DNA from: Escherichia phage vB_EcoM_VR20
DNA: 64,000 nucleotides
Direction: 5' to 3' (one strand)
Sequence record: NC_028894.1
In this document: piece by piece, positions 4,955 through 44,418 of the stretch
Position numbering within the stretch: the first letter of the stretch is position 1
How the letters are laid out: the number at the start of each line of letters is the position of its first letter
Notes under the pieces: generated by a model
Seen by the model: only the letters and a program-made list of their open reading frames with translations
Database searches by the model: none
What the model was told of the DNA's origin: nothing
Program-made: the position numbers and the translations under genes

Positions 4955-4984
4955 TAAAAAAGCCCCAACCTTTCGGAAGGGGCT
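4955..4984 (-). terminator. intrinsic terminator (minus strand)
   Basis: Hairpin AGCCCC...GGGGCT with inner CC-UUUC-GG, followed on the minus strand by a U-run (plus AAAAAA 4955..4960). Confidence 0.55.
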
Positions 4985-5032: not shown

Positions 5033-5416
5033 TTATCCGCGTGCGAATGCCATTGCAGCGCGTTCGTTGGCACGGTCAGTGATGTTCAAGAATTTATCAC
5101 GAGCGATTTCGATTGGAGCACCAACCCAGTCAGCAGCACCATTACCTGGGGACTGTTTAGGACGAACCATATAAGTTGAAACTTTGGAACCAGCTAGTTT
5201 AGCACCAGGTGCAGCGGCATTCTTAACGTCTTTAGCTTTGATACCAAAACCAGTTACGATGCCCCAAGAAACACCATTAACTGGTTTCTTGAACATAACA
5301 CGGTCGCCAATTGAAACACCCGCTTTTTCTGGAGCTACTAAAGAAAATTTACCGGCTTCAGTCAGCACGGATTCGGTGATGGTATTGCGATTTAAAAATT
5401 CTGCATATGTAAGCAT
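5033..5416 (-). CDS. hypothetical protein
   Basis: ATG at 5416, 127 aa; weak RBS; terminator downstream. Confidence 0.45.
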   Translation of the reverse strand: MLTYAEFLNRNTITESVLTEAGKFSLVAPEKAGVSIGDRVMFKKPVNGVSWGIVTGFGIKAKDVKNAAAPGAKLAGSKVSTYMVRPKQSPGNGAADWVGAPIEIARDKFLNITDRANERAAMAFARG

Positions 5417-5653
5417 TTTGTTTTTCCATTATTAGGGTTGTTGTTAATATTTATATTCCATAGTACCGGATGCACCATCCGCTCGGATTTCTCATACTAC
5501 CGGGCGCACCGCCCGCTCTGGAAAAACTCCATAAAAAGGTGCGCCGTTTCTGCTGTGATATAAGGGGACATCAACAAATCGTAAAGATTTATTAATGTCA
5601 GTCCTTAAACAGGGAACATCAGTCCGACGACTTACCGGTAGCGACCCGGTTTC

Positions 5654-5893
5654 TCATTCAATTGTAATAGCTAATTTGACTTTAACAACCTTATAATTGG
5701 AATCAAGGTCATTGAATTCCATAAAATTTGTTGCTAATCTGCGAGTCGGGAAACTTAGATATTTATTATGAGCCGGAGGAGCGGTTAATGCAAACCATGG
5801 GACTTGTTTATCATTTGCATCGAACTCGTCAAAACTATAAACCAGCTCGTTGTTGGTTATATCCATAACCGCATAGGATTCGTTAATAACCAT
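5654..5893 (-). CDS. hypothetical protein
   Basis: ATG at 5893 with GAGGA RBS, immediately downstream (minus strand) of the tRNA pair. Confidence 0.45.
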   Translation of the reverse strand: MVINESYAVMDITNNELVYSFDEFDANDKQVPWFALTAPPAHNKYLSFPTRRLATNFMEFNDLDSNYKVVKVKLAITIE

Positions 5894-5910: not shown

Positions 5911-5987
5911 TGGTCGGGGTGGTGGGATTCTAACCCACAACCTACGGTTTAGAAGACCGTTGCTCTATACAATTGAGCTACACCCCG
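5911..5987 (-). tRNA. tRNA-Arg (anticodon TCT), CCA encoded
   Basis: Minus-strand sequence folds as a cloverleaf: acceptor CGGGGTG/CACCCCG, D-arm GCTC/GAGC, anticodon stem ACGGT/ACCGT with loop CTTCTAA, T-arm GTGGG-TTAGAAT-CCCAC, 3' ACCA. Confidence 0.8.
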
Positions 5988-5989
5988 AG

Positions 5990-6063
5990 TGGCCCCATCC
6001 GGACTTGAACCGGAAACCTGCCAGTTATGAGCCGGATGCTCTAACCAATTGAGCTACAGGGCC
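5990..6063 (-). tRNA. tRNA with anticodon CAT (Met or Ile2-type)
   Basis: Minus strand: acceptor GGCCCTG/TGGGGCC (two GU pairs), D-arm GCTC/GAGC, anticodon loop CTCATAA, T-arm TCCGG-TTCAAGT-CCGGA, discriminator A. Confidence 0.75.
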
Positions 6064-7506: not shown

Positions 7507-7534
7507 TTTATTCTCCTCATTAGTTGATGGGATA

Positions 7535-7565
7535 ATTATACACTATCCCATATCTAAAAGTACAC
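7535..7565 (-). promoter_or_regulatory. early promoter with -10 (GTGTATAAT) in hairpin loop; -35 GTGTAC
   Basis: Stem TGGGATA/TATCCCA (7528..7550) encloses the -10; GTGTAC lies about 17 nt upstream on the minus strand. Confidence 0.55.
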
Positions 7566-7799
7566 TTATTTTTTACGGAAAATTGATTTATACTGTTTAG
7601 CCCATTTCTCGATAACTTCTGCTGGACCCTGGATAACAAAATAGTCCCCAAACTCTTCACCGCCGAGCTGACCGTAATTATCTAAGGCGTCGCGGAGAGT
7701 TCCATAAGGCATTTCGCCCATTTTATCTTTCTTGCCGGTGTAAATGAATTGCACTTTAACATCAGCAGTTTCATTAATAAATTCTTGATAAGTTTTCAT
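7566..7799 (-). CDS. internal-protein-like small protein with N-terminal capsid targeting sequence (MKTYQEFINE)
   Basis: N-terminus MKTYQEFINE-T matches the T4 IP capsid targeting sequence with a prohead protease (gp21) type cleavage motif; own promoter/RBS module; adjacent to 57B as ipI is in T4. Confidence 0.7.
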   Translation of the reverse strand: MKTYQEFINETADVKVQFIYTGKKDKMGEMPYGTLRDALDNYGQLGGEEFGDYFVIQGPAEVIEKWAKQYKSIFRKK

Positions 7800-7824
7800 G
7801 TTGTCTCCAGTAGTTGATGGGATA

Positions 7825-7854
7825 ATTATACTGCAGTTATCCCATCACGTACAC
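7825..7854 (-). promoter_or_regulatory. early promoter with -10 in hairpin loop
   Basis: Stem GATGGGATA/TATCCCATC (7816..7846) with loop carrying TATAAT on the minus strand; GTGTAC -35 at 7849..7854. Confidence 0.55.
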
Positions 7855-8132
7855 TAAATTTTTGTATATTGTCCAGCTTTAACTTTTTTCAGTTCACGAG
7901 GGCTTACCGCGTAAGTGAATGGAGCATTCCAGGAAGAACTGACTTTGTAACCTTTAGTCAACATCATTGCTGAAACTTTCTTGTTATCAGGACCGTTTTC
8001 GCCTTTAACAAGAAACAACTCAAATGCGCCACCATCAACCGGTTTGGCCTTAACCATCAGATGTCCTTTCAGGTCTTCCAGCATATCCGGGTGACTAATT
8101 GATTCGTTAATAAATTCTTGATAAGTTTTCAT
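7854..8132 (-). CDS. internal-protein-like small protein with CTS (MKTYQEFINE)
   Basis: N-terminus MKTYQEFINE-S; unrelated body; own promoter module upstream. Confidence 0.7.
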   Translation of the reverse strand: MKTYQEFINESISHPDMLEDLKGHLMVKAKPVDGGAFELFLVKGENGPDNKKVSAMMLTKGYKVSSSWNAPFTYAVSPRELKKVKAGQYTKI

Positions 8133-8158
8133 TAGTAGCTCCAGTAGTTGATGGGATA

Positions 8159-8188
8159 ATTATACTGCATTTATCCCATCGTGTACAT
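8159..8188 (-). promoter_or_regulatory. early promoter with -10 in hairpin loop
   Basis: Perfect 10-bp stem GATGGGATAA/TTATCCCATC (8150..8180) with TATAAT in the loop; palindromic TGTACA -35 at 8183..8188. Confidence 0.55.
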
Positions 8189-8487
8189 TACATTTTTGAA
8201 CCGCGAATCACGCCATAAGCTGCGAAGTCGTCAGTGATGTTCTTAGGGGTGTTTTTACCAGTTTCAATATATGCGATGCTGGATTTCTGACCAAATGAGG
8301 TAATTTTATTATAGTTAGAGTCAAGGAAAGTATAACCATTTTTACGCAGCTGGTCAAAGTCTTCAGCGTCGCCTTTACCTTTGAAGTCAACCCATTTGTA
8401 TGTGTTTTTCTTCTGAAGGCCCAGAGGCCAGGTTTTTGCTTCTGCCAGGTAATTATTTTCTACCAAAAATTCGTGGAGCGTTTGCAT
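8188..8487 (-). CDS. internal-protein-like small protein with CTS variant (MQTLHEFLVE)
   Basis: CTS-like N-terminus; only 8 nt from the upstream gene, so probably co-transcribed. Confidence 0.6.
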   Translation of the reverse strand: MQTLHEFLVENNYLAEAKTWPLGLQKKNTYKWVDFKGKGDAEDFDQLRKNGYTFLDSNYNKITSFGQKSSIAYIETGKNTPKNITDDFAAYGVIRGSKM

Positions 8488-8495
8488 TTGAAATC

Positions 8496-8768
8496 CTATT
8501 TTAGATAAATTGCATATTTTTTATAACCAGCTGTCTCATGGCGGAGACCCTTGTCATTGGCAAAACGCTCAATGTTGTTGATTTGGTTCTGGTCAAGTTC
8601 AGAGATGTCAAACGCGAAAAAGTTGCGTTTGTTACCAATTGTTATATGGTCAGTTAAGTCAATGCTATACAAGTGATTGATATTGTCAATCATAGCTTTG
8701 ACTGCTTTACTAATTTTTACTTCTTCATTCAGTTGGGACTCGTTGAAAAGTTCATTAAAAGTTTTCAT
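8496..8768 (-). CDS. internal-protein-like small protein with CTS variant (MKTFNELFNE)
   Basis: CTS-like N-terminus; tightly packed behind 8777..9109. Confidence 0.6.
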   Translation of the reverse strand: MKTFNELFNESQLNEEVKISKAVKAMIDNINHLYSIDLTDHITIGNKRNFFAFDISELDQNQINNIERFANDKGLRHETAGYKKYAIYLK

Positions 8769-8776
8769 AAGAAACC

Positions 8777-9109
8777 TTATTTATACAGTTTAGCTAGTTC
8801 TTTACGTCCGCGAGCAGACATAATGAATTGTTCATCACCAATTTTGAAATAAGCCATACCGCCGTCAACAGCGATGCCAATTTCTTTAGTACCTTCTTTG
8901 CCTTTCCACTTACCACCAGATTTCAGGACAGCTTCAACTGCAGCTTTGGAATATTTGGACGTTTGAAAACGTTCATTACCAATCTGAAAGAAAACACCAT
9001 CTGCATTTTTGGATAAACCAAATTTCAGAGAGCCTTCACTATCATCAATTGATTTGGTCTCATTGATGGCGGATTCGGCTAAAAACTCGTTGTAAGTTTT
9101 GATGTTCAT
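8777..9109 (-). CDS. internal-protein-like small protein with CTS variant (MNIKTYNEFLAE)
   Basis: CTS-like N-terminus with LAE cleavage motif; GGAG RBS; stem-loop promoter upstream; directly downstream of 57B. Confidence 0.65.
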   Translation of the reverse strand: MNIKTYNEFLAESAINETKSIDDSEGSLKFGLSKNADGVFFQIGNERFQTSKYSKAAVEAVLKSGGKWKGKEGTKEIGIAVDGGMAYFKIGDEQFIMSARGRKELAKLYK

Positions 9110-9140
9110 TTTAACTCCGTTTGTTCATTGGTGTAGGAAC

Positions 9141-9169
9141 ATAATACTGCACCTACACTCATTTGTACA
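9141..9169 (-). promoter_or_regulatory. early promoter with -10 in hairpin loop (covarying stem)
   Basis: Stem GTGTAGG/CCTACAC (9131..9158) differs in sequence from the other copies but keeps the pairing; loop carries TATTAT; TGTACA -35 at 9164..9169. Confidence 0.5.
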
Positions 9170-9854
<685 letters not shown>

Positions 9855-9855
<1 letters not shown>

Positions 9856-10532
9856 TATAGTACCTTATTAATTTTATCAAAAAGTTCATCGAGTGTGCCA
9901 TCGTTTTTAATAACAATGTCACTAGCTAGTGGTGGAAGTCCAGCTTCCGTAATGTGTGTATCAGTAGAATGATTTGCTTCATCGCGTTCTACAAAGATTA
10001 TTGTAGCACCCATCGCCCGAAGCGAATCAAGTTCGTTCTTTTGGCGAACATCCGGGACAACGTAATATTTATATCCAGAATAGAGGTTGTCAAGATAGTC
10101 GCATGCAAAAGTTTTAATCCAAAACATGCTGTCGAACTCTGTACAAACGATGTCAGTTCCAAGGGTCTGCATGAAACGTCTAACTGTCCAGGGCTCAACA
10201 TTATTTAGTGTGTGAAATTCAATAATTTTACGAACCATATCTGGATTCGGAAGGTCAAGATTGTATTGTTGTTTCAACCATTCAAGAGCATCAACCAGAA
10301 GAATATAAGCTTCGGTGTTGTTCATTATCAAGGTTTTTTCACGGTCATAACCTTGTCCATCAAAATTTTCCAGGGTCAAATTGTGTGGTAGGTCTTGACG
10401 AATCCACGCTTTATAAAGCGCTTCTTTAATCGGACCCGCAAGCTGCCACTTTGTTCCGTTTTGACTAATAACATAATCAGCAGTCGTATCTTTACCACTG
10501 CGTTTTTTACCCACAATCGCAATTAATTTCAT
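9855..10532 (-). CDS. 1: gp1, deoxynucleoside monophosphate kinase
   Basis: P-loop GKKRSGKDT and overall resemblance to T4 gp1; synteny. Confidence 0.85.
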
Positions 10533-11128: not shown

Positions 11129-11213
11129 AGTGCACCTTGTTTGCTTTAAAACAATCAGTGTTATAATGGTTCTAGACCTTTTGTCCTTACCAATAACACT
11201 GACCGATAATAGA

Positions 11214-12047
11214 TTATGAATTTCTCCATACTTTCTGAGAAGAGAATCTTTTGCCTTTCGACATAAATTGTTGCAACGGAAGCATAACAACATTTGCCCA
11301 GTCGCTGGGCTTGATTTCAGTAATAGTACCTTTTATATTGCCAGGTATATATGCTTTAATCATCTGGTCAGCCCCTTTAAATCCCTTCACCTTTGACCAA
11401 TCAATTTTCAGATGAGTCTTGTTCGTAATCGTAGGAGTATTAGCATATTGCTTAAGAAGTTCCTCAAGGAACTCTTGACGCGCCTTCGGTGGAATATAGT
11501 GCAAGTTCAAACCATACATCAAATTGTGCTTACCTAGCCCAAGATAAATGATTAACGGATATTTGTCCCAGTACGGAAGAGTATCCTTATGCTTTGCATC
11601 ATAGATATAAGCATAAATCTTACCTGGTTGAGGTTTAGCCGTTACGTGACCGCGAACTGATTTCTTAATTGTCTCGGCGAACCATCTGGCAGATTTGGTG
11701 TTGCTTGCTGCACCTTCGTTAGCAATCTTATCTCTTATGCTCTTCCTAAAGCTATTCACCATTATCAGCTGGCGTTCAGCCTTCGTAAGTTTACCAGCAG
11801 GTTTCTTTTTGAGCTTGGATACTTTATAAGCAGTCTGAATTCTCGAATGGTATCTTGACATGCTTTTGGTAAAGGTCGAATAGTTGATTCCTTTCTCTTC
11901 AGCAAACTTCTTCGAGGTCATTCCCTTTTCTTTTGCTGTATAAAATTCAACCCCTATCTCAACCCATTGTTGTTCGGATTTACTGGGTTTCGGACCTGGT
12001 TTATCTGCAGATTCATTGATAAATGTAAAAATACTCATCCTTTCCAT
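11214..12047 (-). CDS. 2: gp2, DNA end protector protein
   Basis: 277 aa, basic; synteny between genes 3 and 4. Confidence 0.7.
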
Positions 12048-37657: not shown

Positions 37658-37917
37658 TGGATGATTTATTTGAAGCCATTAAATCAAACGACCTCGTAGC
37701 CGTTCGCAAATATTTTGCTGAAAACATTGGCCCAGTATGCGGTAGTTTGATTGAAGAACGTAAGATTGAAATTGCACGTTCCATCATGATTGAAGGCGAA
37801 GAGCCTAAAGAAGATGAAGATGAAGACAAGGACGACGGTAAAGCAGAAAAGAAAGACAAAAAAGAATCTGATGACGCTGACGAAGGCGATGAAGATGAAG
37901 ATGAGGACGATGAATAA
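37657..37917 (+). CDS. 67: gp67, prohead core protein
   Basis: 86 aa with strongly acidic C-terminal tail; position after portal. Confidence 0.8.
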
Positions 37918-38345
37918 TGTTTATTATCCCTGATGATTACGAATTAACTCTTGAAAACATCGAAAGTGTTTCCGAAGAAGCTCAGGGACAATTTGATTCA
38001 TTATCTGAAGCCTTAGAAAAAGACGATATAAATATTATTGTAGAAAACATGTTTGCAGCCGGTGAATACGAAAAAGCAACGGTTATCGGCGCTCTGAATG
38101 AAGGTGTTCAGCTTAACGAATTTATCGTTAAACATGTATCGTCTCGCGGTGAGTTAACCCGCACAAAAGACCGAGCTACTCGTAAGCGTAATGCTTTCCA
38201 AACAACTGGTCTTTCTAAAGCTAAACGTCGTCAAATTGCCCGTCTGGCTACTAAAACGAAAAGAGCAAACCCATCTACGCAAATCAGAGCAGAGCGCAAA
38301 CGCAAAAAAGCTCGAGCTAAGCGTAAAGCATTCGGACTTGATTAA
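37917..38345 (+). CDS. 68: gp68, prohead core protein
   Basis: 142 aa, basic C-terminus; synteny. Confidence 0.8.
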
Positions 38346-38983
38346 TGGAACAGAAACCAGAGTTACTAATCGAACACTGGGGTCAACCGGGCGAAATTAA
38401 AGATGGTGTACCGATGTTGGAATCTCATGATGGTTCCAGCAGCGGTTTAAAGCCAGGACTTTATATTGAAGGTATTTTCCTACAAGCTGAAGTTGTTAAC
38501 CGTAATAAACGACTTTATCCTAAACATATTTTGGAAAAAGCCGTTGCGGACTATATCGCCGAACAGGTTGAAACCAAGCAGTCTCTTGGAGAATTAAACC
38601 ATCCACCTCGCGCAAACGTTGACCCTATGCAGGCAGCAATTATTATCGAGGAAATGTGGTGGAAAGGGAATGATGTATATGGCCGCGCGCGTATTATCGA
38701 AGGCGACCATGGTCCAGGTGATAAACTTGCTGCGAATATAAGAGCAGGTTGGATTCCTGGCGTATCTAGTCGTGGACTCGGTTCCCTGACTAAATCAGCT
38801 AAAGGTTATAGCATCGTTAATGAAGGTTTTAAATTGACGGTTGGAGTAGACGCAGTATGGGGGCCAAGTGCTCCGGACGCTTGGGTCAAACCAAAGCAGA
38901 TTACAGAATCACAAACGGCTGTTGCCGATACCAGTGCCGATGACGCCTTTATGGCTCTCGCAGAGGCTTTAAAGACGTTATAA
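38345..38983 (+). CDS. 21: gp21, prohead core scaffold / prohead protease
   Basis: 212 aa, same as T4 gp21; synteny. Confidence 0.9.
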   Translation: MEQKPELLIEHWGQPGEIKDGVPMLESHDGSSSGLKPGLYIEGIFLQAEVVNRNKRLYPKHILEKAVADYIAEQVETKQSLGELNHPPRANVDPMQAAIIIEEMWWKGNDVYGRARIIEGDHGPGDKLAANIRAGWIPGVSSRGLGSLTKSAKGYSIVNEGFKLTVGVDAVWGPSAPDAWVKPKQITESQTAVADTSADDAFMALAEALKTL

Positions 38984-39015: not shown

Positions 39016-39834
39016 ATGCTTAAAGAACAACTCATTTCTGAAGCTCAGAATATCGATGCTTCCGTTGCTCTCGATAGTATTTTCGAATCAGTTAATTTGT
39101 CCCCGGAAGCGAAAGCTACCTTCGGCACTGTATTCGAAGCTACCGTCAAGCAACACGCCATCAAACTGGCAGAATCTCACATTCACGCCATCGCTGAAAA
39201 AGCTGAAGAAGAAGTCGAAAAGAATAAAGAAGAATCCGACGAAAAAGCAGAGAAAAAACTGAAAGAATCTGCAGCTAAATTCCTGGACCACGTTGCTAAA
39301 GAATGGCTCGCTGAAAATAAACTGGCTGTCGACCGCGGCATCAAAGCTGACCTGTTCGAATCCATGTTCACCGGCATGAAAGAACTGTTCGTTGAGCACA
39401 ACGTTGTTGTTCCGGAAGAATCTGTTGATGTTGTTGCAGAAATGCAGGAAGAACTGGCTGAACAGAAAGAAGAAACCGCTAGCCTGTTCGAAGAAGTTTC
39501 TAAGCGTGATGCTTATATCAATTATGTCCAACGTGAAGTTGCGTTGACTGAAGCAACTAAAGACCTGACTGAATCCCAAAAAGAAAAAGTTGGTTCTCTG
39601 GTAGAAGGCATGGAATACTCTGATGCATTCGGTACCAAAATTGGCGCTATCGTTGAAATGGTTAAAGGTCAGGTAGAACCCACCGACAAACCAATCACCG
39701 AAGCCGCTATAAATAAAAATGTAGACGATGCTGCGGCACTGAATTACATTTCAGAAGCAGTTGAAGAAAAAGGCGCCAAGCCTACCCTGTCCTTCGCGGA
39801 CTTGTCTGCTCTCGCAGCATCACGAATTTCTTAA
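39016..39834 (+). CDS. 22: gp22, prohead core scaffold protein
   Basis: 272 aa, acidic, coiled-coil; synteny. Confidence 0.9.
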   Translation: MLKEQLISEAQNIDASVALDSIFESVNLSPEAKATFGTVFEATVKQHAIKLAESHIHAIAEKAEEEVEKNKEESDEKAEKKLKESAAKFLDHVAKEWLAENKLAVDRGIKADLFESMFTGMKELFVEHNVVVPEESVDVVAEMQEELAEQKEETASLFEEVSKRDAYINYVQREVALTEATKDLTESQKEKVGSLVEGMEYSDAFGTKIGAIVEMVKGQVEPTDKPITEAAINKNVDDAAALNYISEAVEEKGAKPTLSFADLSALAASRIS

Positions 39835-41853: not shown

Positions 41854-43134
41854 ATGGCAAAGATTAACAAATTACTGCGCGAGTCAACTACCACTACCAG
41901 CAACTCCTTGGGCCGCCCGAATCTTGTTGCTTTGACCCGTGCTACAACCAAATTGATTTACCGCGATATCATCGCTGAACAACGTACTAACCAGCCAGTT
42001 GCGGCTCTGTACGGTGTTAAATATCTTACTCCTGATAATGAATTCAGTTTCCAGACTGGTGCTACTTATGGTGGTGAAGTTGGTTCAAAAGACCGTACAA
42101 CTATTCCGGAATTTACAACCCCAACTCAGGCCGTAGCTAAAGGTGGATACATTAAATTCCAGAATATCGTTTATAAAGCTCTGGTTGATAATCCATTTGC
42201 ATCGACCACAGAAACAGTATTATCTGATGTTCTACAGGAAGGTCTTGTTGCATTAACTATTCGTTTAGTTCCTGATGCTGCACACACCGAAAAATTTGAA
42301 GCTGGTGATGTTGAAATTAGTAACGCTGTATTCCAGGTTAATAAATGGAATGCTCCTGTTAAATCCCGTAAATTGAAAACTGCATTAACTGTTGAGCTTG
42401 CTCAGGATATGGAAGCAAATGGCTTTAATGCTCCTGCGTTCCTGGAAGACCTGCTTGCTACTATTATGGCAGATGAAATTAACAAGGATGTTCTTCAGTC
42501 TCTTATTACCGTTTCCAAGCGTTATAAAGTAACTGGCGTTTCTGACAATGGCACCATCGATTTAACATATGATGCAGCTCCAGAAGGTGCACGTAAACTG
42601 TACGAACTGGTTTGCGAAATGAACTCCGAAATTCAGAAAACTACATCTTATTCCGGTACCTTTGTTGTTGCCTCCAGCCGTGTTGCTGCTATGTTGGCTG
42701 GTTCTGGCTGGCTGAAGCATAAACCTGAAGACGAACAGTGGCTTCCTGAAACAGCGTACGGTTATTTGATTAATGGTCTTCCTGTATTCTGTGATGTTAA
42801 CAGTCCATTGGATTATGTAACCGTTGGCGTTAAAGAAAATTACGGTGGAAACGAAGTCGTAGGCTCAATCTTCTATGCTCCTTATACCGAAGGCCTGGAC
42901 TTAGATGATGAAGAACACGTAGGTGCGTTTAAGGTCATTGTGGACCCAGACAGCTTGCAGCCATCTATCTCCCTGATGGTTCGATATGCGCTTTCAGCTA
43001 ACCCTTACACCGTTGCTAAAGACGACAAAGAAGCTCGTATTATCGATGCAACTAATATGGATTTAATGGCCGGCCAGAGCAATATGTCTTATCTGCTCGG
43101 TGTTAAACTTCCGCCAATCATTTATGAGGCGTAA
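41854..43134 (+). CDS. 24: gp24, head vertex protein (copy 1)
   Basis: 426 aa, gp23-fold vertex protein by size and position after gene 23. Confidence 0.9.
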   Translation: MAKINKLLRESTTTTSNSLGRPNLVALTRATTKLIYRDIIAEQRTNQPVAALYGVKYLTPDNEFSFQTGATYGGEVGSKDRTTIPEFTTPTQAVAKGGYIKFQNIVYKALVDNPFASTTETVLSDVLQEGLVALTIRLVPDAAHTEKFEAGDVEISNAVFQVNKWNAPVKSRKLKTALTVELAQDMEANGFNAPAFLEDLLATIMADEINKDVLQSLITVSKRYKVTGVSDNGTIDLTYDAAPEGARKLYELVCEMNSEIQKTTSYSGTFVVASSRVAAMLAGSGWLKHKPEDEQWLPETAYGYLINGLPVFCDVNSPLDYVTVGVKENYGGNEVVGSIFYAPYTEGLDLDDEEHVGAFKVIVDPDSLQPSISLMVRYALSANPYTVAKDDKEARIIDATNMDLMAGQSNMSYLLGVKLPPIIYEA

Positions 43135-44418
43135 ATGCAAAAGATTAACGCACTAATTCACGAATCAACATTAACGGCGGCCAACCAGGTCGCCCGTCCT
43201 AATTTGCTTTCTTATACTCAGGCCACGAATAAACGAATTTTTAAAGCACTCGTGGCCGAACAGAAAACTACTCAGCCAGTTGCAGCGTTGTATGGTGTTC
43301 GTGTTCTGAACCCAGATGATAAAATGACATATCTTGGTGGAGCAACGTTTGCGGGTCAAATTGGTATGTTCGAGCGTAAGAATATTCCAGAATTTACAAA
43401 CAAAGACGAAGCTTATGCAGTCGGCGATATGTTCCAGTTTGAAAGTGTTGTGTTCAAAGTTTTGGAAGCATCACCATTCGCCGGGACTCTTGAAACTGAT
43501 TTGGGTGAAGTTATTTCTGAAGCCATTGCTGCTGGCCATATAAGAATGATGTCGGATGCGGCTTTCACTGATAAATTTGAACAAGGTCATCCTGAAATTG
43601 CTGAAGCCGGTTTCCGTATTGATAAATGGCAGACCGAAGTCAAATCCAGAAAGCTGAAAACTTCTTTAACGGTCGAGCTTGCACAGGACCTGGAAGCAAA
43701 CGGTTTCGATGCAACAGACTTCATTGATAATATTCTCGGTATTCAGATGGCAGAGGAAATTAATAAGGATGTACTGCAATCCCTTATTACTGTCAGTTCT
43801 CGCTTCAAGGTGCAAGGTGTTTCTGAAAAAGGTGTATTGAATCTAACTGACCCGAAATATGATAACGCTCAGGACCGTGCGCGAACCCTGTATTATTATA
43901 TGTGTGAAATGAACTCCGCAGTTCAACGTCAGACTTCGTTTGCTGGTACATATGCAGTCGCTTCTTCCCGGTGTGCAGCTATTTTAGCAGCTTCTGGTTG
44001 GGTTGAGAAAAAGGAAGACCAGGATGAATTAGCCTATGGCGTTCTGAAGAACGGTTTACCACTTTATGCAGATATGAATAGTCCATGTGATTATGTTATT
44101 GTTGGTGTAAATGCTGATATGGGTGAAGGTCAGACGGTCGCATCTTTGTATTATGCGCCTTATACGGAAGGACTTAGTGAAGTTGATGATGAGGGTGATA
44201 CCTCGGTCGGGGAATTCAAGGTTATTGTTGACCCTGAAAGCTTGCAGCCTACTGTTGCGCTATTAGCTCGTTATGCATTGACAGCGAACCCTTATACGGT
44301 TGCGAAAGATGATAAAGAAGCTCGCATTATTGATGGTGCTGATATGGATAAGATGGCCAACCAAAGCCAATTGAGTTCTTATCTTGGTGTTAAACTTCCA
44401 CCACTGGAAAAAGAATAA
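43135..44418 (+). CDS. 24: gp24 paralog, head vertex protein (copy 2)
   Basis: 427 aa; clear similarity to copy 1 along the whole length (RPNL...QPVAALYGV...; C-terminal GVKLPP); starts 1 nt after the copy 1 stop. Confidence 0.85.
   Translation: MQKINALIHESTLTAANQVARPNLLSYTQATNKRIFKALVAEQKTTQPVAALYGVRVLNPDDKMTYLGGATFAGQIGMFERKNIPEFTNKDEAYAVGDMFQFESVVFKVLEASPFAGTLETDLGEVISEAIAAGHIRMMSDAAFTDKFEQGHPEIAEAGFRIDKWQTEVKSRKLKTSLTVELAQDLEANGFDATDFIDNILGIQMAEEINKDVLQSLITVSSRFKVQGVSEKGVLNLTDPKYDNAQDRARTLYYYMCEMNSAVQRQTSFAGTYAVASSRCAAILAASGWVEKKEDQDELAYGVLKNGLPLYADMNSPCDYVIVGVNADMGEGQTVASLYYAPYTEGLSEVDDEGDTSVGEFKVIVDPESLQPTVALLARYALTANPYTVAKDDKEARIIDGADMDKMANQSQLSSYLGVKLPPLEKE

Follow-up and report, generated by a model that had tools for sequence, protein, structure and literature searches.

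The window analysed here, a 64,000-nucleotide (64-kb) stretch of Escherichia phage vB_EcoM_VR20 (NC_028894.1), contains at positions 7566-9109 of its minus strand a cassette of five small genes, which is very probably the hypervariable internal protein (IP) locus of a T4-type phage. The predicted proteins have unrelated bodies, each preceded by a leader that resembles the capsid targeting sequence (CTS) of T4 internal proteins, and analogy with T4 supports the view that they are packaged into the phage head and injected with the DNA. A locus of this kind is textbook material. Descriptions of the polymorphic IP locus and of its leader go back to 1994 (Repoila et al. 1994), and three of the five genes (ip6, ORF154c, and ip9) are already labelled as internal head proteins in RefSeq; the novelty claimed in an earlier note on this DNA was therefore overstated. 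What is new is that ORF153c and ORF156c, which are "hypothetical" in nearly every record seen, appear to belong to the CTS class of internal proteins, and that ORF156c would define a multi-genus CTS family with a predicted duplicated fold of the Whirly/PUR type. Also new are a sixth candidate (candidate 6, positions 5033-5416), which lies outside the range of the earlier note, and the boundaries of the cassette units, which are formed by promoter/stem-loop elements.

The five candidate IP genes are listed below under their VR7 names, with ↓ marking the predicted site of cleavage by the prohead protease gp21; leader identities are relative to the T4 IPII/IPIII leader, and all sizes and pI values of mature proteins are predictions.

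7566-7799, minus strand: gene A (ip6), 77-aa precursor, leader MKTYQEFINE↓T (9/10, four key positions all kept); mature protein 67 aa, 7.7 kDa, pI 7.8; phrog_8111, internal virion protein (2.5e-51)
7854-8132, minus strand: gene B (VR7ORF153c), 92-aa precursor, leader MKTYQEFINE↓S (9/10, four key positions all kept); mature protein 82 aa, pI 9.6; phrog_15565
8188-8487, minus strand: gene C (VR7ORF154c), 99-aa precursor, drifted leader MQTLHEFLVE↓N (5/10, Leu at position 4); mature protein 89 aa, pI 9.3; phrog_2667, internal head protein (2.5e-20), member of the RB69 ORF125c family
8496-8768, minus strand: gene D (ip9), 90-aa precursor, leader MKTFNELFNE↓S (5/10, Leu at position 7, Phe at P3); mature protein about 80 aa, pI 6.8; phrog_7673, internal head protein (3.3e-56)
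8777-9109, minus strand: gene E (VR7ORF156c), 110-aa precursor, leader MN-IKTYNEFLAE↓S (7/10, two extra N-terminal residues); mature protein 98 aa, pI 9.3; phrog_3966

Thus, the five consecutive minus-strand genes for proteins of 77-110 aa that had been reported earlier were all found in place. Their predicted mature products span 67-98 residues (7.7-10.7 kDa); those of B, C, and E are basic (pI 9.3-9.6), and those of A and D near-neutral. The RefSeq record of VR7 describes ip6 as "internal virion protein, similar to T6 Ip6", ORF154c as "internal head protein", and ip9 as "similar to RB32 Ip9", with "hypothetical protein" for ORF153c and ORF156c. The PHROG classification divides the genes in the same way: families 8111, 2667, and 7673 are head/internal protein families, and 15565 and 3966 are of unknown function. 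Homologs of gene B were found in 16 phage records, all from Gaprivervirus, all at least 97.8% identical, and all labelled "hypothetical", and gene E is annotated as an internal protein in no record examined. Pfam and NCBIfam returned no significant family for any of the five genes or candidate 6, and a phmmer comparison of the six mature bodies with all PDB sequences gave nothing at E<=0.1. In phage EAWsc9, the ORF156c homolog (L005, 3253-3585) is labelled "profilin" and the ORF154c homolog (L005, 2664-2963) "homing endonuclease"; neither label was backed by any search made here.

The window region shares 97% identity with Escherichia phages TH57 and vB_EcoM_VR7 and 93-97% with SP18, VR25, VR26, and others, which by sequence identity makes it part of a VR7/SP18-like phage of the genus Gaprivervirus, subfamily Tevenvirinae. 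On one side, the cassette is flanked by gene 1 (dNMP kinase), 57A, and 57B, and on the other by trna.4, trna.3, and two tRNAs. In T4, ipI occupies the identical slot between 57B and trna.4, and the earlier placement of the cassette beside 57B, in the ipI slot, is thus borne out by the T4 comparison and by the neighbouring genes. The conserved left-hand neighbour is the following gene.

9170-9625, minus strand: 57B, anti-CBASS nuclease Acb1 (Pfam Acb1, 1.5e-59)

The IP cassette therefore directly adjoins another known anti-defence gene. Many records still give 57B as "RNA ligase".

The shared leader and the maturation machinery

A regular expression for the shared N-terminal motif matched only the five cassette genes among 1,712 start-to-stop candidates of at least 40 aa in the window. 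A position-specific matrix, built from eight leaders of other phages and none from the window, was scored on 742 ATG-initiated open reading frames (ORFs), with a background over the window of mean -21.6 and standard deviation (sd) 6.5. Genes A and B both scored 32.3, gene E 25.3 (read from its third residue), and gene D 9.4, which places these four within the top five; gene C scored 5.1, about 4 sd above the background mean.

According to the T4 record, the IPII and IPIII precursors both start with MKTYQEFIAE↓A, and the IPI precursor with MKTFKEFTSTTTPVSTITE↓A. The propeptides of T4 internal proteins have 10-19 residues, and the first 10 residues of IPIII are enough for packaging; targeting depends chiefly on residues 4 and 7 and processing on residues 8 and 10, and gp21 cleaves after L/I-X-E (review, PMC9026906). 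With identities from 9/10 to 5/10, the window leaders match the T4 CTS at the positions that matter, as had been proposed: all five are MKTYQEFIAE-like, with hydrophobic or aromatic residues at position 4 (Y, Y, L, F, and Y in A, B, C, D, and E) and position 7 (F, F, F, L, and F). The N-termini quoted in the earlier note as a common decapeptide are all present, with the qualification that the fifth protein carries an extra MN- in front of its leader. In homologs of E from other genera the protein begins directly with MKTY; in the window, the codon of the ancestral Met is ATC, and the start lies two codons upstream of it, behind a well-spaced GGAG. The gp21 cleavage context, claimed for the whole cassette, holds for A (INE↓T), B (INE↓S), C (LVE↓N), and E (LAE↓S). 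The leader of gene D ends in FNE↓S, in which P3 is an atypical Phe in place of Leu/Ile, and a canonical LNE↓E occurs at residues 13-15. When the leaders were removed, BLASTP among the window proteins found no pair at E<=1e-3, so that the genes do combine a common head with unrelated bodies, as described earlier.

The leader is also kept in homologs. In the E family, all members at 52-72% identity start with MKTYxEF..., the equivalents of K2, T3, Y4, F7, and E10 are invariant, and the linker after the leader is variable. In the C family, homologs at 55-73% identity have a MKTYQEFINE or MKTYQEFLTE leader, and a paralog of C in the second IP locus of VR7 (ORF127c, 35% identical) has a canonical leader of the MKTYQEF[IL]xE type too. 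Overall, the leader is retained in the three families that have diverged homologs (C, E, and candidate 6), while the bodies drift to 35-50% identity. Between the window families, the leader codons differ in synonymous or conservative ways (TAT/TAC, GAA/GAG, ATT/TTA/TTG). Conservation of the leader as amino acids while the bodies diverge argues against hitch-hiking homology and for a leader that is under selection rather than merely copied as DNA.

The machinery that would act on such leaders is encoded in the same window.

37917-38345, plus strand: gp68, scaffold core (phrog_1049), flanking gp21
38345-38983, plus strand: gp21, prohead core serine protease (Peptidase_S77, 8.1e-102; phrog_207, head maturation protease)
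39016-39834, plus strand: gp22, scaffold core (T4_CASP, 5.2e-91), flanking gp21 and containing many [LI]xE sites

A gp67-like acidic ORF, gp20, gp23, and two gp24-like genes are also present. The scaffold core is the structure to which the CTS directs proteins in T4. Cleavage contexts in the window are FLTE↓AEIGG in gp23 and LLRE↓STTT, after residue 10, in gp24, which we take to be equal to the T4 sites. The specificity of gp21 is therefore plausibly conserved, and the cassette has in the window a cognate prohead protease and scaffolding core. The two gp24-like (Gp23-family) vertex genes lie in tandem at 41854-43134 and 43135-44418 on the plus strand, each with an [LI]xE↓S site after residue 10 (LLRE↓S and LIHE↓S).

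Promoter/stem-loop elements and gene turnover at the locus

The four longer intergenic gaps of the cassette each contain a -35-like GTGTAC, a 17-18-nt spacer, and a -10 box (TATAAT or TATTAT) inside a 10-bp stem, after which come a Shine-Dalgarno sequence (SD) and the ATG.

9110-9169, minus strand: element upstream of the E-D-C unit; GTGTAC, 18-nt spacer, TATTAT, stem GTGTAGG/CCTACAC, then SD GGAG; promoter scan 9/12; stem-loop -16.3 kcal/mol, z -2.4; conserved in all Gaprivervirus loci
8133-8187, minus strand: element upstream of gene B; (A/G)TGTAC, spacer, TATAAT within the stem GATGGGATAA/TTATCCCATC, then SD AACTACTGGAG; promoter match 10/12; repeat families D2 and D3; z -2.5
7800-7853, minus strand: element upstream of gene A; 92% identical to the element at 8133-8187; z -3.0
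7507-7565, minus strand: element upstream of trna.4, with a homologous element upstream of trna.4 in T4; repeat D3; z -3.1; right-hand boundary of the variable region

The exact stem GATGGGATAA/TTATCCCATC is present in two copies, versus 0.01 expected, and the promoter-plus-stem pattern occurs five times, versus 0.12 expected. The cassette hairpins range from -13.6 to -16.3 kcal/mol (z -2.4 to -3.1); a generic terminator scan of the minus strand gave nothing relevant. With their repeated sigma-70-like promoter, stem-loop and SD, flanking accessory ORFs, and indel breakpoints inside, the elements are recognizable as promoter-early stem-loops (PeSLs). In phages RB49 and phi1, PeSLs were shown experimentally to be active promoters, terminators, and mediators of modular shuffling (PMC2839356, PMC4122927). 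The window elements are similar to the PeSLs of T4-type phages (Arbiol et al. 2010; Comeau et al. 2014) in their -35/-10 spacing, the stem-loop over the -10 box, the SD, and the ATG, as well as in flanking small accessory ORFs of a hyperplastic region and in having junctions inside the elements. They differ from known PeSLs in that the stem GATGGGATAA/TTATCCCATC and the -35 sequence GTGTAC are specific to the VR7-type group, and in that the repeat reaches into the CTS coding region, and so is predicted to carry a protein-sorting signal as well. This direct repeat of ~97 nt, composed of the PeSL and the first 32 coding nt (the CTS), is found at 7768-7864 and 8101-8198, with 92-94% identity between the copies (D1 94%, D2 92%). 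Three transcription units can be read from the layout. E, D, and C, separated by spacers of only 8 nt, form a single unit, and B and A each have a PeSL of their own. In T4, ipI, ipII, and ipIII are each preceded by GTTTAC, followed by a stem-loop around the -10 box.

To follow the gene content, 14 loci were compared, nine of them from Gaprivervirus, among which the flanks are >93% identical. The CTS proteins at the 14 loci fall into 12 body families, and the locus, whose comparison across related phages had been suggested earlier, is thus hypervariable. The gene order from 57B to trna.4 was as follows.

Window and VR7: E-D-C-B-A
VR25: E-D-C-A
SP18: E-D-(pseudogene)-B
EAWsc9: E-D-C-G-A'
UPEC07: E-D-G-A'
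RZ and MN01: E-D-G-A'-F
TH44: E-D-C-G-B-A'

Gene D was found in 9/9 Gaprivervirus loci, and gene B is missing in VR25, EAWsc9, UPEC07, RZ, and MN01. Elsewhere, the same slot holds only IPI in T4, and IPI-Ip7 in the Mosigvirus Shf125875. The variation between near-identical phages fits non-essential accessory genes. Nearly all of the variable junctions are PeSLs; those that are not comprise the 8-nt spacer after D, where either C or G comes next, and, in EAWsc9 and TH44, a stem-loop that lies upstream of G and lacks a promoter. The C/A junction of VR25 is a chimera, whose 5' half is that of the element upstream of B (…ataaatgcag…) and whose 3' half is that of the element upstream of A (…ggagacaac), as expected for the remnant of a PeSL-PeSL recombination that deleted B. 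We conclude that gene gain and loss among close relatives coincides with PeSL boundaries. In SP18, the slot of gene C holds a pseudogenised remnant (L004, 2427-2681), annotated as a misc_feature "similar to hypothetical protein", which indicates that decay as well as exchange is ongoing at the locus.

VR7 has a second IP locus beside denV/e (L014, 6729-7649), which contains ip10 (leader MKTYQEFITE), ORF127c (MKTYQEFITE), and ip7 (MLTYQEFITE), and the number of CTS proteins in this phage type is therefore at least eight. Location in one of the two slots, 57B-trna.4 or near e/denV, together with hypervariable content, is what was found for the IP genes compared here. The ORF156c family was found in 54 phage records from phages of Escherichia, Shigella, Yersinia, Edwardsiella, Citrobacter, Salmonella, Serratia, Pectobacterium, and Erwinia. 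The gene lies beside 57B in Gaprivervirus and Serratia phages, and beside the endolysin gene in Citrobacter phages CF1/Merlin and Salmonella phage STP4-a, which indicates that IP families move between the two IP loci.

Probable packaging, possible targets, and alternative explanations

By analogy with T4 experiments, targeting, gp21 cleavage, packaging, and injection of the cassette proteins are likely. The first 10 residues of each small precursor (12 in ORF156c) would act as the CTS and bind the precursor to the gp22/gp67/gp68/gp21 scaffolding core during prohead assembly. The protease gp21 would then cleave after the Glu at the leader end (L/I-X-E), and the freed mature protein of 67-98 residues would remain in the head among the packaged DNA and enter the host with it, ahead of any phage gene expression. 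There, each mature protein would most likely inhibit a single host defence enzyme, stoichiometrically and with high specificity, like T4 Ip1, Ip2, and Ip3; such an anti-defence role is plausible by precedent, and we consider it slightly favoured. For ORF156c, nucleic-acid binding may be the mode of action, either instead of such inhibition or in addition to it. The ~97-nt repeat of PeSL, SD, and CTS would supply a promoter, a ribosome site, and a packaging signal at once, and would also provide the homology for the recombination that adds, removes, and swaps IP bodies.

The precedent is that of T4 Ip1, Ip2, and Ip3, which were each found to inhibit a single GmrSD type IV restriction enzyme, a different one in each case, without cross-protection (PMC12373910), and the mention of T4 IPI as an inhibitor of type IV restriction in the earlier note agrees with this result for Ip1. 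Many further ip genes have been identified by the signal sequence, at least ten being reported (PMC12373910). T4 IPI, IPII, and IPIII and the Ip4-Ip13 proteins of T-even phages (Repoila et al. 1994; Mullaney & Black 1996; Silas et al. 2025) share with the cassette the genomic slot, the CTS, the L/I-X-E context, the protease, and the scaffold, as well as small, non-conserved bodies, presence/absence variation, and a promoter/stem-loop upstream, and three of the five cassette genes are homologs of named Ips (Ip6, Ip9, and the RB69 ORF125c family). Unlike T4, the window has five genes at the locus rather than one, and no body that resembles IPI*, IPII, or IPIII: no homology was found between the mature domains and these three proteins. 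An IPI homolog among the five genes can be rejected, because BLASTP against T4 and Shf125875 IPI gave no link and the PHROG families of the five differ from those of T4 IPI (4363), IPII (7857), and IPIII (5341). Phage P1 DarA/DarB/Hdf and the ejection proteins of T7 and N4 embody the same concept, that is, capsid-loaded proteins delivered with the DNA to pre-empt defences, but they have no relation to the cassette in sequence, leader, or locus, and follow a different packaging logic.

Several points weigh against a packaged, injected, anti-defence cassette. Virion proteomics for VR7 or other Gapriverviruses was not found in the literature searched, nor was direct evidence of virion association, processing, or injection. 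Ten other, unspecified ip genes gave no inhibition when challenged with five further active GmrSD systems (PMC12373910). Gapriverviruses lack the enzyme that forms hydroxymethylcytosine (hmC) and all known hmC glycosyltransferases (PMC8056088, PMC12115623). Two of the leaders, those of ip9 and ORF154c, are only 5/10 identical to that of T4, ip9 has Phe at P3, and ORF156c carries a two-residue N-terminal extension. The immediate promoters of the cassette look early (sigma-70-like) and not late; since the proven IP genes of T4 have an early-type PeSL as well, this is no argument against a head-protein role. The sole late promoter box (TATAAATA) inside the cassette, at 8778-8785 on the minus strand, is formed by the last codons of ORF156c (..LYK stop) and lies 10 nt before the ATG of ip9, too near for a normal leader. 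While this box is conserved in all relatives, its origin from ORF156c codons and its distance from ip9 suggest that it is probably coincidental, or that it serves a downstream gene.

The product of hmC glucosylation is the substrate of the only known Ip targets, the GmrSD enzymes, and the genus of the window differs from T4 in having no such pathway. Because GmrSD enzymes recognise glycosylated hmC, the targets of the window proteins cannot simply be extrapolated from T4, and GmrSD may not apply. At the same time, Gapriverviruses retain dCTPase, DenA, DenB, Alc, and Ndd (PMC8056088, PMC12115623), which together with the missing hmC pathway implies an unknown base modification. A tentative possibility, which we hold to be on the unlikely side, is that the injected proteins of Gaprivervirus (eight or nine CTS proteins per genome) are not GmrSD inhibitors and act instead on other immediate-early defences, for example enzymes that recognise the DNA modification of the genus, or non-restriction systems, with ORF156c as an injected nucleic-acid binder of the Whirly/PUR type. 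If this were true, ORF156c might shield the entering DNA or its ends, or sequester defence RNA or single-stranded DNA, a mode undescribed for T4-type internal proteins.

The suggestion concerning ORF156c comes from structure prediction, which the earlier note had proposed as a check. An AlphaFold2 model of ORF154c was borderline (pLDDT 69), and fold comparison with it gave no informative match. For ORF156c, a model of moderate confidence was obtained from an 11-sequence alignment (pLDDT 75, pTM 0.62). It consists of two tandem modules of four strands and a helix, which form one domain with a Whirly/PUR-like fold. Comparison of profiles made from the two halves of the ORF156c family gave a match with 95% probability and E=4e-8, which supports an internal duplication. 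A search of a viral structure library with the model returned only its own homolog and a few unannotated phage proteins, with a "Whirly transcription factor" at E=0.08. Members of the Whirly/PUR/MRP1-2/SsgA fold group likewise consist of two four-strand-plus-helix repeats, and all except SsgA bind single-stranded nucleic acid; their identity to ORF156c is only 5-15%. Unlike the cellular regulators of the Whirly/PUR type, ORF156c is a monomeric, ~11-kDa predicted phage head protein. Nucleic-acid binding by ORF156c may be taken as a lead of moderate confidence.

An alternative that shares the packaging step is that the cassette proteins carry a functional CTS but serve mainly a structural or physical role, in DNA charge neutralisation, condensation or ejection, or in head assembly. 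Such a role was suggested for the basic IPII and IPIII of T4 before 2025. Of the six mature proteins, counting candidate 6, four have a basic pI (B, C, and E at 9.3-9.6, candidate 6 at 10.3), E has the predicted Whirly/PUR-like fold and is found across several genera, and both E and D are present in 9/9 Gaprivervirus loci. In addition, T4 IPIII mutants are slower in head assembly, and in T4 heads only the lysines of internal proteins contact DNA phosphates. However, A and D are near-neutral, near-identical phages differ in whether they have A, B, C, F, and G, which speaks against a structural role that the phage requires, and T4 IPII and IPIII, long suspected of being structural, proved to be specific GmrSD inhibitors (PMC12373910). 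We consider a mainly structural role unlikely.

It is also conceivable that only the canonical leaders (those of A, B, and probably E) are functional, and that C, D, and candidate 6 are decaying or re-purposed copies whose products remain unpackaged or uncleaved. The low leader identity of C and D, Leu 7 and the P3 Phe of D, Arg at position 10 in candidate 6, and the SP18 pseudogene in the C slot all fit such decay. On the other hand, positions 4, 7, and 8 are still hydrophobic in C and D, which both retain Glu 10, and the leader of D is conserved in 9/9 Gaprivervirus loci, in a family already named Ip9. Candidate 6 resembles a 19-residue leader of the IPI type, with ITE and LTE sites, and has a late promoter box of its own; VR7 Ip7 likewise has Leu at position 2. 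Amber-suppressor tests of IPIII at codons 2, 4, 7, and 8 included insertions of Leu, Phe, and Tyr (PMC9026906). Decay of this kind is quite unlikely.

It is very improbable that the shared N-terminus is a by-product of recombination, in which the PeSL and 5' coding sequence were copied as a mobile module in front of ordinary early cytoplasmic accessory proteins: the leaders of A and B are 94% identical as DNA and contiguous with a 92%-identical PeSL, and the promoters resemble sigma-70 early promoters, but the leader is kept as amino acids despite synonymous and conservative codon changes, in homologs that share no more than 35-50% identity, in other genera, and at another site in the genome, D and C keep it without a preceding PeSL (8-nt spacers), the motif is absent from other PeSL-associated small genes of the window such as trna.4, and the same 10 residues suffice experimentally for packaging in T4 (PMC9026906).

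A packaged, injected set of internal proteins would not surprise a specialist and leaves current understanding unchallenged; its value is that of good experimental material. Internal proteins act before phage gene expression, and thus decide whether an infection survives the first nucleases of the host. The only internal proteins with known targets are T4 Ip1, Ip2, and Ip3, and the other named Ips, together with the unlabelled ones, make up a list of small candidate inhibitors. A single phage offers five or six such candidates, and natural near-isogenic relatives differ by single IP genes (VR25 without B, TH44 with six) and could serve as existing knock-outs when host ranges are compared. As the genus apparently carries an unknown DNA modification, targets of its internal proteins could reveal host enzymes that recognise the modification.

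A sixth candidate and other features of the window

Three features outside the cassette together describe candidate 6.

5033-5416, minus strand: candidate 6, 127 aa, with an IPI-like long leader MLTYAEFLNRNTITESVLTE↓AGK that contains ITE and LTE sites
5448-5455, minus strand: perfect T4-type late promoter box TATAAATA, about 30 nt upstream of the candidate 6 ATG
4957-4984, minus strand: terminator-like hairpin AGCCCC...GGGGCT followed by a T-run, read from the sequence after the candidate 6 stop codon

The predicted mature protein has about 107 aa, a pI of 10.3, and a net charge of +9. In the independent CTS matrix, candidate 6 ranks fourth of 742, with Arg instead of Glu at position 10 of the leader. 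Late boxes TATAAATA number 22 in the window, versus 4.7 expected; one of them, at 10066-10073, might give rise to a late transcript over the cassette. Candidate 6 has no Pfam or PHROG family and was found in 14 phage records only, with identities of 99% or more. When 1.84 billion representatives were searched exhaustively with HMMER, the only additions were two diverged full-length relatives (38-41% overall identity) and a near-identical 53-aa fragment. Both diverged relatives start in a CTS-like manner, with MYTFKEFLVE↓SELDLITE↓A and MKSFKEFMLSE. One of them is located on a T4-like contig next to Phage_30_3, T4_Y06R, and T4_Y16K genes, downstream of a tRNA-like sequence, and has a near-consensus late box. 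We conclude that candidate 6 is a probable, though unproven, internal protein.

Two further observations concern other parts of the window. At ~11140-11215, the window is without the MobB-like homing endonuclease gene that is present between genes 3 and 2 in VR7, VR25, and UPEC07 (positions compared: L001 11221-11877, L002 6884-7543, and L007 5355-6029). On the minus strand at 5460-5660, between a tRNA-Arg/tRNA-Met pair (5911-6063) and candidate 6, there is a GC-rich stretch of ~200 nt with a folding energy of -71 kcal/mol (z -3.6). An Rfam scan of this stretch returned no family; it may be a small stable RNA, presumably like those of the T4 tRNA cluster.

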